This document shows positions 719 to 55,570 of a stretch of DNA of 64,000 nt, in pieces; position 1 is the stretch's first letter; every line of letters begins with the position of its first letter. Source of the DNA: Escherichia coli (GTDB taxonomy: Bacteria > Pseudomonadota > Gammaproteobacteria > Enterobacterales > Enterobacteriaceae); assembly GCF_002854065.1 (NCBI RefSeq), contig NZ_CP024147.1; one strand, 5' to 3'. Below the pieces are notes generated by a model. It did no database searches. It saw nothing but the letters and a program-made list of their open reading frames with translations, and was not told the origin of the DNA. The position numbers were made by a program, and so were the translations under genes.

Positions 719-1069
719 CTACTGATACAGCCATTTTCCCGCTTCTGCTGATTCCGCAAACATCCGTACAGTTAACGGTAAACGTGTTGTTTCTACCTCT
801 TCCCGCTTGAGCTTGAACCATCGTTGAAGCAATGGTGCAGACTCCCACGGAAGGTACAAAGACCAGTCCAGATTATCCAGGTTAATCCCAAACCTCTCTT
901 TGTATTTCCGTATAGCGTCCTCTAAATCATCTCGTGGATAGTCGAACAAATCAGAGTCCAGTTCTAACGGAATTTCCTTCCCGTGGTCATCCTGATAACC
1001 TGGAATCTCATCACGGAACAGTGCTAAAACTTCGTCTGTGATTGTTGTTGCCATTAGAAGGAAGTCCAC
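719..1069 (-). CDS. hypothetical acidic protein, 116 aa (second gene of rluE-icd intergenic cassette)
   Basis: ORF-track ORF; an internal ATG at 1052-1054 overlaps the upstream gene's stop as TAATG, suggesting translational coupling; no family recognised with certainty. Confidence 0.5.
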   Translation of the reverse strand: MDFLLMATTITDEVLALFRDEIPGYQDDHGKEIPLELDSDLFDYPRDDLEDAIRKYKERFGINLDNLDWSLYLPWESAPLLQRWFKLKREEVETTRLPLTVRMFAESAEAGKWLYQ

Positions 1070-3395: not shown

Positions 3396-3442
3396 ATGTA
3401 GATATTATTAATAGCATATCGAGCATATTTATATAAAACCCA

Positions 3443-3766
3443 TTACTTGAGCCCATACGGGCATATTTTTATAATACAACTCTTATGCAAACATTTATTT
3501 GTTATTTCGCTTTCTCCTGGAGGACACTCTTGACTGCTTTTGAGTAAACTCCATAAATTCTTGTTGAATGGTGCAATGTTATAAATAGTAATAGGATATT
3601 CTTTATCCTTAAGGATAATACCAGGCTTAACAGGTGTAAATATACTTCCAGGAGGAAGAAATATAGTAGATTGATACCAGATGATCATTTTCATATCACC
3701 CCATATGGCTGAAAAAGATATGCCGCATGTAGGTTGAATTACCGTGTCAATTACTACCCACTTCAT
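3443..3766 (-). CDS. iraM: anti-adaptor protein IraM (RpoS stabiliser)
   Basis: 107-aa ORF in an AT-rich segment immediately after icd; size and position match IraM (ycgW) as recalled for K-12. Confidence 0.75.
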
Positions 3767-4866: not shown

Positions 4867-5086
4867 CAGGATAATAACCTCTTGTTAGTTGTGAGACTGC
4901 GTAGTGTGCACGATCGGTTTTACCACTTCAATCTGGTCTGTCCTTTGGCTGTGATATGTACAAAGTGTGAAAGGGGGATTACCTGAATTCTCCCGGTGAG
5001 CATTTTGTAATGGACCAGCTCCGGTACAAACGCTGTTGTGGGTTCAGATTATAACATTCTGTCTAAGGGGCGGGATAAAGGTGAAA

Positions 5087-5818
5087 TTAGGGGGCATGAA
5101 AGATGACTTTATAACCTTGCTCACCCCAGTGTTGTAAAAGTTCATTTTGCCTTCTCGTTGGTGCCATGCCTGTCCAGACAATCAATGTTTGCGTCGGGAA
5201 CAGTTCCGGGCGCGGTGATTCAATGGGATCAGCAAGAACAGAAATATGCCATCCTGACAATGATAAACGCCATGCTTCCAGCCACAATCGAGCTCTCTCT
5301 TCAACATTCCACGCCATCAGAATGGCTTCTTTACCGGGCTTACGGCGCATTTCGAAAAGCGAGGCTGCTGCGTATTCAATTAGTGCGCCGTCAAACATAC
5401 TGCTCATAATGCGGGAGGTGTTGTGATCAAGCACGAGACGCTGGCGAACAGGAAGGTAAACATGATTAATCAATTGATCTACTGGGTACTCTCGACCCAG
5501 TGAAATAATTCTCGCGCGTAGTTTGGCAGGATTAGCCATACGAAGAATTGACATCATCTCTTCTTGCAGGCGGCTCCAGTCATCTTCCGTATCCTGGCTG
5601 GTGGTTTCCAGTAATGCTTTAACTTTGCCTACAGGGACGCCATTACTTATCCAACGCTTGATCTCTTCGATACGTTGTATGTCTTCTTCATCAAAGAGTC
5701 GGTGTCCGCCTTCACTGCGCTGTGGTTTTAACAAACCGTAGCGGCGTTGCCAGGCCCGGAGAGTGACAGGATTAATCCCGCAACGTTCAGCAACATCACC
5801 AATGCTGTAATAAGCCAC
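5087..5818 (-). CDS. bluR: MerR-family transcriptional repressor BluR (YcgE)
   Basis: 243-aa ORF with N-terminal MerR HTH ([32 protein letters not shown]); divergent from ycgZ operon. Confidence 0.9.
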
Positions 5819-6022
5819 AATTCCTCCTTGCGGTCACAAATCTCCGTCGCCTGTACACGACCCAATAATACTTTGTACAATATACGCTAAAATTGTACAA
5901 AGTATAAATAAGATTTCAGCTAAATTGGATGAAACATTATTTTTAATGTGGATTAAATTAAAACATAACGTATTCATTTTCACGATGATTTCCAGAAAAC
6001 TTGCAAAATAATGTGCTGAAAA

Positions 6023-7234
6023 TTATTTTTTCTCCGGCCACGCAACTGAAGGGATACCATTCAATTTAGCTTTAGCAAACAGATCCCCCTGAAACATCTC
6101 AATTCCTGCGGATTCAAGCCACATCCACTCTTCTGGTGTTGCCACGCCCATAGCACTGACTTGAATTTCAAGTGATGTACAGCATTTTATGATCGCCTGA
6201 ATAATTGCCTGCCGTGGTCCGCTTTTATGAACATTGGTAATCAATTCCTGACTGATTTTAATTCTGTCAGGCTGGAAGCGTGACAGGAGTAACAAACCAG
6301 CAAAACCTGCGCCAAAATGATCAATTGCTACACTGATACCGGCAGCCTTTAGCGATTTAACCGCTTCGGCAAACTCATCAAACCGAGATATGACTTCACT
6401 TTCAGTAAATTCAACGATGATTTGTTCAGGCACCAGACCATTGGCCTTTATTTCATCAAGTAAAAAAGAGACTGCGTCAGGCTCGTTAACCAGGGTCATA
6501 GGTAATAGATTGATAGATATCATTTTATCACCGAGCTCAAGTGCGTGTGCCATCGCGAATACAAGCGCCTTACTTTTGAGATCCGCTGTGTAGATTTCCC
6601 CGTCTTTACGCTGCCCAACCGCTATAGCTGACGGGCTGTCTTCATTTTTTTGCACAATGGCTTCAAAAGCGATTATCCGCCGCGATAAGGGATCAACAAT
6701 AGGATGAAAGGCAAAGTGGTCGTTTATATTTGGTGAAAGGGTACAGGAATCAAGTTCTTTATCAGATCTGTCAGCGATAAAAAGCCAGGAGTCTTCAGCA
6801 GGGATCTCGAAATAGGTTGATTGTTCGGTTGCAAGGACAAAAGTACGAAAAAATTGTAGCGCTCTGTCATCATAAGTTAGCTGAAATTTTGATGTGCCTT
6901 TGTCGAATACGGCCTGTAAAACGTCATCTCGCTCGTGCAGGCGTAAATCAAATAATTCCATTCCTGCTTTACCAAAACGGCGAGCAGGCGCGTAATCGCA
7001 CAACAGTTCAACAATATTATAGTGCCGAGGATCCTGGCATATAGCCCGATATATCATTTGAACCTGTTCTTCCGGACCTTCCAGAAGCTGGAAAAAATGA
7101 GAACCATTAAACAGTAAGATCCCTGTTACGTCAGACTGCATGTTCCTGCGATTTGCTATCGAAACCATTTCTTCGATTTTTTTGACAGGTTCGTCGTCAC
7201 GTATATGGCTACGATAAATAAGGGTGGTAAGCAT
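6023..7234 (-). CDS. bluF: blue-light sensing BLUF-EAL protein BluF (YcgF)
   Basis: Conserved N-terminus MLTTLIYRSHIRDDEPVKKIEEMVSIANRRN starts at ATG 7232-7234 (403 aa); ORF track extends 26 codons upstream. Confidence 0.9.
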   Translation of the reverse strand: MLTTLIYRSHIRDDEPVKKIEEMVSIANRRNMQSDVTGILLFNGSHFFQLLEGPEEQVQMIYRAICQDPRHYNIVELLCDYAPARRFGKAGMELFDLRLHERDDVLQAVFDKGTSKFQLTYDDRALQFFRTFVLATEQSTYFEIPAEDSWLFIADRSDKELDSCTLSPNINDHFAFHPIVDPLSRRIIAFEAIVQKNEDSPSAIAVGQRKDGEIYTADLKSKALVFAMAHALELGDKMISINLLPMTLVNEPDAVSFLLDEIKANGLVPEQIIVEFTESEVISRFDEFAEAVKSLKAAGISVAIDHFGAGFAGLLLLSRFQPDRIKISQELITNVHKSGPRQAIIQAIIKCCTSLEIQVSAMGVATPEEWMWLESAGIEMFQGDLFAKAKLNGIPSVAWPEKK

Positions 7235-7547
7235 TAACTGTCCAGGGTAATGGGAGAGGCGAGAGTAAGACGGTAACAGACATATCTTCCGGTGTCTTTC
7301 TTTTAATACCAAAACATAACTGTTTCTTTACATTGATAAAAAATGGAAAAAGTTGAACACGAGTTGGCGAAAAATCTTGTATAGGTTGTCAGTTAAATGA
7401 TGCAATATGTTTTATCATAACGTATTGTTTTATATGCATTAGCACTAATTGCAAAAAATTAATTTATCATTCTGTACACATATTTCGTACAAGTTTGCTA
7501 TTGTTACCTCACTTAACATTGATTAACATTTTTAACAGAGGCGTAGC

Positions 7548-7784
7548 ATGCATCAAAATTCAGTGACTTTAGATTCTGCGGGAGCAATCACTCGTTACTT
7601 TGCAAAAGCTAACTTGCCTACTCAGCAGGAAACTCTCGGGGAAATTGTGACTGAGATTTTGAAAGATGGACGTAATCTGAGTCGAAAGTCGCTTTGTGCC
7701 AAACTTCTTTGCCGACTGGAACAAGCGACAGGGGAAGAGGAACAGAAACATTATAATGCACTAATTGGGTTGCTTTTTGAATAA
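7548..7784 (+). CDS. ycgZ: small regulatory protein YcgZ
   Basis: 78-aa ORF, first gene of the ycgZ-ymgA-ariR-ymgC cluster. Confidence 0.85.
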   Translation: MHQNSVTLDSAGAITRYFAKANLPTQQETLGEIVTEILKDGRNLSRKSLCAKLLCRLEQATGEEEQKHYNALIGLLFE

Positions 7785-7813
7785 TGCAACAGCCTGATTA
7801 TTTGGATTTGCCC

Positions 7814-8719
7814 CTATATTTCCAGACATCTGTTATCACTTAACCCATTACAAGCCCGCTGCCGCAGATATTCCCGTGGCGAGCGATAACCCAGCGCACT
7901 ATGCGGATGCCATTCGTTATAATGCTCGAACGCCTCTGCAAGGTTCTTTGCTGCCGTTAACCCGTCTGGTTTGGGCATGATACTGATGTAGTCACGCTTT
8001 ATCGTTTTCACGAAGCTCTCTGCTATTCCGTTACTCTCCGGACTCCGCACCGCCGTGTTCTTCGGTTCAAGTCCCAACATCCGGGCGAACTGGCGTGTTT
8101 CATTAGCCCGGTAGCATGAACCATTATCCGTCAGCCACTCCACTGGAGACGACGGAAGATCGTTGCCGAAGCGGCGTTCCACCGCTCCCAGCATGACGTC
8201 CTGTACTGTTTCACTGTTGAAGCCGCCGGTAGTGACCGCCCAGTGCAGTGCCTCACGATCACAGCAGTCCAGCGCGAACGTGACACGCAGTCTCTCTCCG
8301 TTATCACAGCAGAACTCGAACCCGTCAGAGCACCATCGCTGATTGCTTTCTTTCACGGCCACTCTGCCTGTATGTGCCCGTTTCGATGGCGGTACAGCAG
8401 GTTTTCGCTCAAGCAACAGCGCATTCTAGCGCATGATCCGGTAAACACGTTTGGCATTGATCGCAGGCATACCATCAAGTTCTGCCTGTCTGCGAAGCAG
8501 CGCCCATACCCGACGATAACCATACGTGGGCAGCTCTCCGATAACATGGTGTATACGGAGAAGCACATCCGTATCATCAGTGTGACGACTGCGGCGGCCA
8601 TCCATCCAGTCATCGGTTCGTCTGAGAATGACGTGCAACTGCGCACGCGACACCCGGAGACAACGGCTGACTAAGCTTACTCCCCATCCCCGGGCAATAA
8701 GGGCGCGTGCGCTATCCAC
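7814..8719 (-). pseudogene. insD: IS2 transposase InsD (orfB) interrupted by in-frame amber codon
   Basis: Two ORF-track pieces (8426..8719 and 7814..8416) lie in the same frame, separated by TAG at 8426-8428 where intact IS2 InsD reads ...[13 protein letters not shown] (Q codon); remainder matches InsD. Confidence 0.8.
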
Positions 8720-9042
8720 TTTTTTGCCCGTCCATATTCAACGGCTTCTTTGAGGAGTTCATTTTCCATCGTTTTCTTGCCGAGCAGGCGCTGGAGTTCT
8801 TTAATCTGCTTCATGGCGGCAGCAAGTTCAGAGGCAGGAACAACCTGTTCTCCGGCGGCGACAGCAGTAAGACTTCCTTCCTGGTATTGCTTACGCCAGA
8901 GAAATAACTGGCTGGCTGCTACACCATGTTGCCGGGCAACGAGGGAGACCGTCATCCCCGGTTCAAAGCTCTGCTGAACAATTGCGATCTTTTCCTGTGT
9001 GGTACGCCGTCTGCGTTTCTCCGGCCCTAAGACATCAATCAT
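8677..9042 (-). CDS. insC: IS2 protein InsC (orfA)
   Basis: 121-aa product [52 protein letters not shown]... from ATG 9040-9042. Confidence 0.9.
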
Positions 9043-9162
9043 CTGTTCTCCAATGACTAGTCTAAAAACTAGTATTAAGACTATCACTTATTTAAGTGAT
9101 ATTGGTTGTCTGGAGATTCAGGGGGCCAGTCTATTATTTAACAGGTTAGCTATGAAGTCGTT

Positions 9163-9435
9163 ATGAAGACATCTGATAATGAAAGTATAAAATATGAAAT
9201 TACTGGCCAGGCGGTGCTCCAGATACTGCGCATGAAGATAAATTTTTCGGTGCAGACTCTTATTAAGCAATTACTCGTAATGAAATCGGCTGAGGAAAAT
9301 GCTTTCCGACGAGATTTAATTGACAGCATAATTCGTGATTTTAGCAACAGTGATACAGGAGGGCCAAACCGAAGAACAGCGATAGCTGACAATAAAAGTA
9401 TGTTCAATGGTAAGAAAATAAACAGAATACATTAA
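9163..9435 (+). CDS. ymgA: two-component connector protein YmgA
   Basis: 90-aa ORF immediately downstream of the IS2 insertion. Confidence 0.8.
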   Translation: MKTSDNESIKYEITGQAVLQILRMKINFSVQTLIKQLLVMKSAEENAFRRDLIDSIIRDFSNSDTGGPNRRTAIADNKSMFNGKKINRIH

Positions 9436-9463
9436 AATTTCATAAGTAAGATGAGAGGTTACC

Positions 9464-9730
9464 ATGCTTGAAGATACTACAATTCATAATGCAATAACTG
9501 ATAAAGCGTTATCAAGTTACTTTCGCAGTTCGGGTAATTTGTTAGAAGAAGAGTCAGCAGTGTTAGGGCAGGCTGTGACTAATTTAATGCTTTCAGGCGA
9601 TAATGTTAATAATAAAAATATTATCTTAAGTCTGATACACTCCCTGGAAACAACAAGTGATATTCTCAAAGCTGACGTGATCAGAAAAACACTGGAAATC
9701 GTGTTGCGATACACAGCGGATGACATGTAA
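9464..9730 (+). CDS. ariR: regulator of acid resistance AriR (YmgB)
   Basis: 88-aa ORF at the expected position and size. Confidence 0.8.
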
Positions 9731-9842
9731 CTTTTAATTATTAAGTATAAGTTTATAGAAAACTCATTCATCTTATTTTTGTCTGTCGCTTTAGACTATA
9801 CACAGCATAATTTTATTGGGTTAATATTTCTACGAGGCTGAC

Positions 9843-10091
9843 ATGAATAATTCAATCCCAGAGAGATTTATTTTTCAATGTGCTTTGTTTAAAAATCTCG
9901 AGAGGGAGGTATTCATGACGCATGGGTATGTTGATAGTCATATTATTGATCAGGCTTTACGCTTGCGTTTAAAAGATGAAACCAGTGTGATTCTTTCTGA
10001 TCTCTATCTGCAAATCTTGCAGTACATTGAAATGCATAAGACTACACTAACGGATATCATTATTAATGACAGGGAATCCGTGCTCTCTTAG
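9843..10091 (+). CDS. ymgC: uncharacterised protein YmgC
   Basis: 82-aa ORF, last gene of the cluster. Confidence 0.75.
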   Translation: MNNSIPERFIFQCALFKNLEREVFMTHGYVDSHIIDQALRLRLKDETSVILSDLYLQILQYIEMHKTTLTDIIINDRESVLS

Positions 10092-10426
10092 AACTTGAGT
10101 AAGGTTATAGAATAAACATCAGCTGTATCATCATGCTGGTGCAAAGTGAGCATTTCAGGCGTTATGCTTTCTTAATATATCCGCAATATCAGGGGGCAAA
10201 CAGGAATGGAGAGCGCTCGTTTTCCATTCTTGACGCCTGATATCCCACCTAATTTGTTTAATTCTGCCTACATTGTGCTCAATAATTAATAGGTTAGATG
10301 AAGATGGAGAAAATTTTATCTTCGGCGTGGATATTTCTTATGCTCTCTACCATGCTCTCTGTAGACGCCAGCGCGAGCGAATGAACGTCATTTTCATGTA
10401 TTAAACCCTTTGTTCGGGACAAGCGA

Positions 10427-54168: not shown

Positions 54169-54413
54169 TTAAAAGCTGAAGTGATATCCTCCGTTGACTT
54201 GCTTCTGATCAAAGAGGTTACCCTGCGTGTAATCCGCTTCGAGGTAGAATGTGTGCTGTTTGTTATACTGTGCACTGACTCCCACGCCGTTATTCCAGCC
54301 ATTACCTTTGAAACTGTACTTCTCCCGGGAGTTATTCAACTGATATTCTGTATCCCCTGAAAACTCGCGGATAGCGCCAGTCTTCACATAGATATTCAGC
54401 TGGCTGTTGCCTG
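54169..54413 (-). pseudogene. ycgV: C-terminal remnant of an autotransporter beta-barrel (ycgV position) truncated at the IS1 junction
   Basis: Only about 80 codons with barrel-terminal character (...QKQVNGGYHFSF) remain between dhaR and IS1; no passenger-domain coding sequence follows IS1. Confidence 0.5.
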
Positions 54414-54428
54414 GGTAATGACTCCAAC

Positions 54429-54932
54429 TTATTGATAGTGTTTTATGTTCAGATAATGCCCGATGACTTTGTCATGCAGCTCCACCGATTTTGAGAACGA
54501 CAGCGACTTCCGTCCCAGCCGTGCCAGGTGCTGCCTCAGATTCAGGTTATGCCGCTCAATTCGCTGCGTATATCGCTTGCTGATTACGTGCAGCTTTCCC
54601 TTCAGGCGGGATTCATACAGCGGCCAGCCATCCGTCATCCATATCACCACGTCAAAGGGTGACAGCAGGCTCATAAGACGCCCCAGCGTCGCCATAGTGC
54701 GTTCACCGAATACGTGCGCAACAACCGTCTTCCGGAGCCTGTCATACGCGTAAAACAGCCAGCGCTGGCGCGATTTAGCCCCGACGTATCCCCACTGTTC
54801 GTCCATTTCCGCGCAGACGATGACGTCACTGCCCGGCTGTATGCGCGAGGTTACCGACTGCGGCCTGAGTTTTTTAAATGGCGGAAAATCGTGTTGAGGC
54901 CAACGCCCATAATGCGGGCGGTTGCCCGGCAT
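54429..54932 (-). CDS. insB: IS1 protein InsB
   Basis: 167-aa ORF matching IS1 InsB (..[70 protein letters not shown]). Confidence 0.9.
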
Positions 54933-55126
54933 CCAACGCCATTCATGGCCATATCAATGATTTTCTGGTGCATACCGGGTTGAGAAGCGGTGTAAGTGAA
55001 CTGCAGTTGCCATGTTTTACGGCAGTGAGAGCAGAGATAGCGCTGATGTCCGGCAGTGCTTTTGCCGTTACGCACCACCCCGTCAGTAGCTGAACAGGAG
55101 GGACAGCTGATAGAAACAGAAGCCAC
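54851..55126 (-). CDS. insA: IS1 protein InsA
   Basis: 91-aa ORF matching IS1 InsA ([43 protein letters not shown]...). Confidence 0.9.
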
Positions 55127-55570
55127 TGGAGCACCTCAAAAACACCATCATACACTAAATCAGTAAGTTGGCAGCATCACCCATTTTTGCATTACTAATA
55201 AGAAAAAGCAAAAAACATCGATATTCATTTTTGATCAATGATTTTTCTGGCATATCGTTATTATCGTGCTATTGGTTATCATTTTCATCTTGCCAGGATC
55301 GCACGTAATCTCATTATTCGGGGACTTTATCTGCGGGATATTACCCTTCAGGTAAGTCCTTTTCTCGCCAGCATATTGGAGCGTGATCAATATTGATCAG
55401 CTGTGAAGGGGGTGATGTGTAGTGGAACAAAAACTTACGTTATATCACTACTAATGAGATATCCGTCATCTGAACACTGATGTCTTTAATTATTCTGGTG
55501 GTTCACTGTAGGCAATAAGCACAAAAGTGTAGGATGTTACAAGAATGATTAGGACTCGGTGAAATGAAAA

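Follow-up and report, generated by a model that had tools for sequence, protein, structure and literature searches.

An IS2 copy with an amber-interrupted insD between ycgZ and ymgA in an Escherichia coli strain

Between the small genes ycgZ and ymgA, a 64-kb stretch of Escherichia coli DNA (referred to here as the window) carries a complete copy of IS2 whose transposase reading frame is interrupted by an amber codon. The locus raises the question of whether this copy can still transpose, how the element and its nonsense codon came to be there, and what the insertion means for the genes that lie beyond it. The explanation that best accommodates the evidence as a whole, and in which we have high confidence, is a private and simple insertion of IS2, a copy made non-autonomous by the amber codon, and polarity on the downstream genes. 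A recent, strain-private transposition would have placed IS2 in an AT-rich TTATT within the 42-nt ycgZ-ymgA spacer, one C-to-T change on the coding strand would have turned Gln206 of OrfAB into an amber stop, and 1.3 kb of untranslated antisense IS2 would largely cut ymgA-ariR-ymgC off by polarity, with ycgZ still expressed. The input lost to the three downstream genes would be that of the ycgZ promoter, which is controlled by BluR/BluF, sigma-S, and MarA. Both the element and the type of event are already known; this is an ordinary insertion in a non-essential operon, and its importance beyond the strain itself is slight.

The element and its amber codon

The element occupies positions 7803-9133 on the minus strand. 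Its right inverted repeat (IRR; 7803-7843, minus strand, 41 bp), which contains an outward-reading -35 hexamer (TGGAAA), adjoins the 3′ end of ycgZ, and its left inverted repeat (IRL; 9092-9133, minus strand, 42 bp) adjoins ymgA. Direct reading of the plus strand revealed that the element starts at 7803 with TGGATTTGCCCC and ends at 9133 with GGCCAGTCTA; longer reads of the termini give TGGATTTGCCCCTATATTTCC as the first bases and GGGGGCCAGTCTA as the last. The IS2-specific termini TGGATTTGCC and GGCCAGTCTA are both present, the two repeats are imperfect, and inverted-repeat detection recovered them as 7811-7843 paired with 9092-9124. The window contains a single occurrence of each 30-nt IS2 terminus, compared to zero expected from shuffles. 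The flanking TTATT copies, at 7798-7802 and 9134-9138, form the perfect 5-bp target-site duplication that an earlier note on this DNA had described, and all the coordinates in that note proved correct. These include the placement of the element, for which the ORF coordinates give 18 nt between the ycgZ stop codon and IS2 and 29 nt between IS2 and the ymgA ATG, as claimed.

Base-by-base comparison with other IS2 copies revealed two differences from the copy in K-12 MG1655 (1329 of 1331 bases identical; positions 8428 and 8528, the latter synonymous), three from the copy in ABW_A19, two from that in strain 639, and a single difference, at 8428, from that in strain CUWW06 (1330 of 1331 bases identical). 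insC (orfA; 8677-9042, minus strand), which encodes the 121-aa IS2 repressor and DNA-binding protein, is intact, as is the A6G (AAAAAAG) programmed -1 frameshift site (8719-8725, minus strand). When a -1 slip was simulated at A6G and the TAG was restored to CAG, we obtained an OrfAB of 409 aa. This restored protein matched the NCBIfam model for IS2 transposase TnpB with 723.9 bits (cut-off 597); the models for IS2 repressor TnpA and IS3 family transposase scored 238.8 bits (cut-off 229) and 279.5 bits (cut-off 160). Pfam domains on restored OrfAB were HTH_Tnp_1 (8-87), HTH_21 (172-212), rve (232-335), and rve_3 (324-389). By sequence, the element is an IS2 (IS3 family, IS2 subgroup), and the identity to reference copies, together with the NCBIfam and Pfam matches, bears out the claim that it is a complete 1331-bp IS2. 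It shares with the K-12 element (insC/insD) the length of 1331 bp, the terminal repeats, insC, the A6G site, and a 5-bp duplication. It differs from the K-12 element in the change from CAG to TAG at nt 706 (Q206*), in the synonymous base at 8528, and in an insertion site that is absent from K-12.

The amber codon is a plus-strand CTA at 8426-8428, which gives TAG on the minus strand, the coding one. This codon stands in place of CAG, the codon for Gln206 of OrfAB (Gln98 of InsD), and divides insD into a 5′ fragment of 97 codons followed by TAG (8426-8719, minus strand) and a 3′ part (7814-8425, minus strand) that encodes the whole DDE catalytic core and is cut off from translation; the ORF that remains on the 3′ side has 200 codons (7814-8416). 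On the plus strand, base 8428 is A in the window and G in all four compared copies (K-12 MG1655, ABW_A19, 639, and CUWW06). The change is therefore C to T on the coding strand, at IS2 nt 706, and G to A on the plus strand. The four reference copies show that the earlier note was right, for the plus strand, in proposing that a single G-to-A change made TAG from a Gln codon. They have no stop at this position, which disposes of the concern, raised in the same note, that reference IS2 might carry one too. We rejected a methylation-linked mutation or sequencing hotspot, since the wild-type context, GCGCCAGAATG, is neither a Dcm site (CCWGG) nor a Dam site (GATC).

A 61-nt probe centred on the amber codon matched at 17,365 places, spread over 4,192 of the 5,426 complete E. 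coli genomes. None of these ~17,000 IS2 copies matched the TAG probe exactly; no record had a match better than 98.4%, corresponding to at least one mismatch. Similarly, a 25-nt string around the TAG had no exact match in GTDB representative genomes or JGI metagenome contigs.

The coding sequence for rve and rve_3 is present in the window copy, but it lies behind the stop at codon 206, leaving no translatable DDE domain. Since this stop precedes both Pfam rve and the IS2 catalytic core, which comprises residues 236-398 (Lewis et al., 2011, PMC3219604), the entire DDE domain is lost. As the reading frames demonstrate, catalytic transposase cannot be translated from this IS2 unless UAG is read through. 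No tRNA genes, including any for an amber suppressor, were detected within the 64-kb window. The products left would be the InsC repressor and a 205-residue OrfAB stub that includes the DNA-binding region, the leucine-zipper-like region (residues 73-100 of IS2 transposase; PMC3219604), and most of the middle domain. Speculatively, InsC and the 205-aa stub may damp other IS2 copies.

Low-level transposition of transposase-null IS2 has been attributed to chromosomal IS2 copies (Lewis et al., 2011, PMC3219604). Since its ends are intact and null IS2 can receive such help, we infer that the window IS2 is non-autonomous yet mobilisable in trans; unless helped in this way, the copy would be a dead end. 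The description of the copy as "probably transposition-defective" in the earlier note stands insofar as its own transposase is lost. However, "non-autonomous" is the better term for an element in which the ends, InsC, and the frameshift site are all intact.

Origin of the insertion and of the nonsense change

CUWW06 (NZ_CP182139.1), a wastewater E. coli isolate from Thailand, is 100.0% identical to the window over 24.9 kb, with ~22 substitutions across the shared window backbone. Its ycgZ-ymgA spacer is an empty site, identical to the window once IS2 and one of the two TTATT copies are taken away, so that a single TTATT is left, and the near-identical CUWW06 stretch that includes ycgZ has one mismatch in 1511 nt. 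This exact empty site demonstrates what had been proposed earlier, namely a simple insertion without adjacent rearrangement.

CUWW06 carries an IS2 of its own in the same orientation, 6.7 kb upstream, where it is flanked by a GAAGT duplication and lies between DUF1493 and STM2901-family genes (locus L005, positions 5000-6330). This copy resembles the window copy in all but one base, in orientation, and in its near-identical backbone; it differs in its site, in its duplication (GAAGT, not TTATT), and in carrying CAG at the amber position, apart from which the two elements are identical. The site of the CUWW06 copy is cleanly empty in the window (1061-1065). IS2 transposes by copy-out and paste-in, via a figure-of-eight and a minicircle (PMC3219604). 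Since each genome is empty at the site occupied in the other, and transposition is copy-out, the two copies represent two independent insertions, which would stem from a shared IS2 pool. We rejected a local hop from the CUWW06 site, 6.7 kb away, because the window's version of that site is clean and unoccupied and transposition is copy-out.

Other IS elements also distinguish the two genomes. CUWW06 has three IS1 copies that are absent from the window: after icd, inside bluF, and inside ycgH (window equivalents 3435-3443, 6293-6301, and 13190-13198). An intact 887-aa ORF at 12700-15363 of the window is the ycgH autotransporter gene, which in CUWW06 is broken by the IS1 and carries a partial annotation. 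The window contains a 768-bp IS1 at 54414-55181 that lacks a target-site duplication (its flanks read ...gttgcctg and catttttgc...) and adjoins the remnant of a C-terminal autotransporter beta-barrel gene (54169-54387, minus strand), of which CUWW06 retains 197 bp more. The sequence at this site suggests that DNA next to the IS1 was deleted in the strain of the window. Judging from the two genomes, IS turnover in the window/CUWW06 lineage is fast relative to point mutation.

To gauge how widespread the insertion is, 100-nt probes across either IS2 boundary were compared to the 5,426 complete E. coli genomes. Neither the ycgZ-IS2 nor the IS2-ymgA junction was present in any of them; the only two high-coverage matches were separate pieces of a different insertion, in ymgA. 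A 30-nt junction string also had no exact match in GTDB representative genomes or JGI metagenome contigs. By these sequence searches, the insertion is private to the strain in the collections examined, and its junction is a good clonal marker.

The nonsense change itself was found in one other IS2 variant. An exact look-up of the 97-aa InsD fragment showed 10 places, of which we rejected six as evidence because the contigs stop at that codon, where they have either the wild-type C or no base at all. The ends of these unrelated public contigs fall precisely 706-707 nt into IS2. Such ends are most simply a selection effect of the exact 97-aa look-up, and they could also mark a point at which IS2 variants commonly branch in assembly graphs. 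The other four places are SRA assemblies of one locus, at which an IS2 variant with the same TAG, and the same 97-aa fragment, lies between iss and a CobW-family gene. The flank of this variant had 100% matches in 645 complete E. coli genomes, and the matching places were almost all on plasmids. The variant, which lies on a ColV-type plasmid, shares the C-to-T change at nt 706 with the window copy and differs from it at 21 bases, in being plasmid-borne, and in its site. Since the complete plasmid NZ_CP058875.1 carries the same variant copy, identical except for CAG, the plasmid TAG is an independent mutation. On the sequences compared, C to T at IS2 nt 706 arose at least twice independently. 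As the product was searched for specifically in a very large collection, such recurrence is expected and gives no evidence of a hotspot.

Because the amber codon rests on one base of one assembly, it could be a base-calling or assembly error, such as a consensus of mixed reads from several IS2 copies, and the copy would then be a normal, autonomous IS2. In favour of an error, the sibling copy differs at this one base alone, the change was unseen in the ~17,000 IS2 copies of complete genomes, and repeats are the hardest places to polish. However, the rest of the element and its 64-kb flanks look clean, the neighbouring genes have no frameshifts, and identity to CUWW06 is 99.9-100%. A substitution is also an unusual type of long-read error, the site matches neither the Dcm (CCWGG) nor the Dam motif, and the presence of the same C-to-T change in four SRA assemblies of the plasmid-borne variant indicates that the mutation is biologically plausible. 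An error of this kind is, in our judgement, very improbable. A genuine amber codon could instead predate the insertion, in which case transposase from another IS2 in the same cell would have moved, in trans, a copy that was already non-autonomous. Such a history would be compatible with the intact ends and perfect 5-bp duplication, and with the transposition of null IS2 that has been attributed to chromosomal copies (Lewis et al., 2011, PMC3219604). Against it, the CUWW06 sibling, the only close one available, has CAG, and searches of complete E. coli genomes, GTDB, and JGI revealed no second TAG copy of the window IS2 type at another site. Moreover, IS3-family transposases act preferentially in cis. 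We therefore find it quite doubtful that the amber codon came first. Since the closest sibling copy, that of CUWW06, has CAG, a nonsense mutation that followed the insertion is the more parsimonious order of events.

Consequences for ymgA, ariR, and ymgC

The four small genes keep their order and lie downstream of two intact genes that diverge from them, bluF (6023-7312, minus strand) and bluR (5087-5818, minus strand). The four are ycgZ (7548-7784, plus strand, 78 aa), which matches NCBIfam YcgZ_fam with 123.8 bits (cut-off 80) and is named ycgZ by RefSeq in CUWW06; ymgA (9163-9435, plus strand, 90 aa); ariR, also called ymgB (9464-9730, plus strand, 88 aa); and ymgC (9843-10091, plus strand, 82 aa). 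The last three are intact ORFs whose names follow the annotation of CUWW06. With IS2 in the ycgZ-ymgA spacer and the RefSeq names in CUWW06 in agreement, the insertion splits the ycgZ-ymgA-ariR-ymgC cluster, as the earlier note had stated. In K-12, ycgZ-ymgA-ymgB(ariR)-ymgC are transcribed as a single polycistronic mRNA from the sigma-S-dependent ycgZ promoter, which is repressed by BluR, and BluF relieves this repression (Tschowri et al., 2012, PMC3509220). The ycgZ promoter is also activated by MarA (Kettles et al., 2019, PMC6900184).

The insertion increases the distance from the ycgZ stop codon to the ymgA ATG from 42 to 1378 nt. This gap has stops in all three frames and contains 80-nt segments in which the fraction of C is 0.36 and that of G is 0.17. 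There were no intrinsic terminator-like sites on either strand of 7300-9500, and a consensus scan revealed no promoter-like site directed from IRL to ymgA. Since the 1378-nt gap is untranslated, its C-rich stretches are compatible with Rho loading, and the genes form a polycistronic mRNA, the most likely outcome is that polarity uncouples ymgA-ariR-ymgC from the ycgZ promoter. As no intrinsic terminator was found within IS2 on the plus strand, some read-through into ymgA is possible. For the strain, we predict that blue-light, cold, or MarA input via the ycgZ promoter would still give YcgZ and would give little YmgA, AriR, and YmgC. These three proteins have roles in activating the Rcs phosphorelay and down-regulating curli, and contribute to acid resistance and to the control of biofilm.

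At the IRR, we noted a candidate hybrid promoter (7797-7824, minus strand) in which the -35 hexamer TGGAAA is separated by a 16-nt spacer from AATAAT, a -10-like hexamer supplied by the target duplication; it scored 9/12 in the consensus scan. If active, it would read antisense into ycgZ, towards bluF on the same strand. The outward -35 of IS2 has been located in the right end (Lewis et al., 2011, PMC3219604), and a further paper also places it in IRR (PMC9330008). The candidate resembles the Pjunc promoter of the IS2 minicircle, as well as the fusion promoter that IS2 created at ampC (Jaurin and Normark, 1983, cited by PMC9330008), in that the IRR -35 hexamer lies beside a flanking -10-like hexamer. 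Unlike Pjunc, for which a 17-nt spacer is reported to be mandatory (PMC3219604), the window site has a spacer of 16 nt, and its transcript would run antisense to ycgZ instead of into a gene downstream. Both the 16-nt spacer and the weak -35 argue against promoter activity, and promoter-like sites in the region overall are no more numerous than in shuffles.

An alternative to polar uncoupling is that ymgA-ariR-ymgC are not silenced, with read-through, or a new or internal promoter, altering their output. The lack of an intrinsic terminator-like site on either strand of 7300-9500 fits with this idea, as does the fact that ymgA still has 29 nt of its native leader, ribosome-binding region included, and IS2 is known for creating fusion promoters (Jaurin and Normark, 1983, cited by PMC9330008). 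However, the known outward -35 is in IRR and faces away from ymgA, no promoter-like site reads out of IRL, and Rho typically acts on long stretches of untranslated RNA that are rich in C. We consider continued expression of the three genes unlikely, and polar uncoupling from the ycgZ promoter is the reading that we favour.

IS2 insertions elsewhere in the ymgA-pdeG region

Comparison of the locus across the 5,426 complete genomes revealed IS2-family elements within ~1.5 kb in 80 of them, 26 in the orientation of the window copy and 54 in the opposite orientation. These counts derive from searches in which IS2 was joined to its flanks, with pieces up to 1.5 kb apart. An orientation bias of IS2 was rejected, as the first query could see only the window orientation and an inverted query gave the 54 opposite insertions against 26. 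With the 61-nt probe, we counted 14,828 chromosomal IS2 copies, which, if spread uniformly, would place ~11 in 3.7 kb. The 80 observed thus represent a roughly sevenfold excess, a rough figure that ignores clonal inheritance and shared ancestry. The GC content of the region is 36%, compared to 48% for the window, and the excess may reflect either the AT-richness of the region or its dispensability.

We examined eight of these loci, each of which is an independent insertion, a full-length element of 1331 bp flanked by a perfect 5-bp duplication of its own. Seven have insertion points equivalent to window positions 9230 (in ymgA), 9738 and 9837 (in the ariR-ymgC spacer), 9993 (in ymgC), and 10567, 10722, and 10780 (in pdeG); the eighth is in the ymgC-pdeG spacer, with a flank that did not map to the window. 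Like the window insertion, these natural insertions in ymgA, ariR-ymgC, ymgC, and pdeG involve full-length IS2 or IS2-like elements and interrupt the same module. Unlike it, they extend from 9230 to 10780, with none in the ycgZ-ymgA spacer, their transposases are annotated as intact, and they occur in both orientations.

The recurrence of IS2 hits hints that loss of the module is tolerated or favoured. A broader reading would join these observations to those on the window copy. In this scenario, many independent natural insertions would selectively remove either the branch from YmgA/AriR to Rcs or pdeG, leaving ycgZ intact in the cases examined. The window insertion would in addition give rise, from the hybrid promoter, to an RNA that is sense to bluF and antisense to ycgZ, and the stub, with its domains for DNA binding and dimerisation, could act together with InsC as a trans-dominant brake on other IS2 copies. 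We give this combination little credence. Our literature search found nothing specific on IS insertions in ycgZ-ymgABC; one evolved K-12 clone in which ariR carries an insertion was noted.
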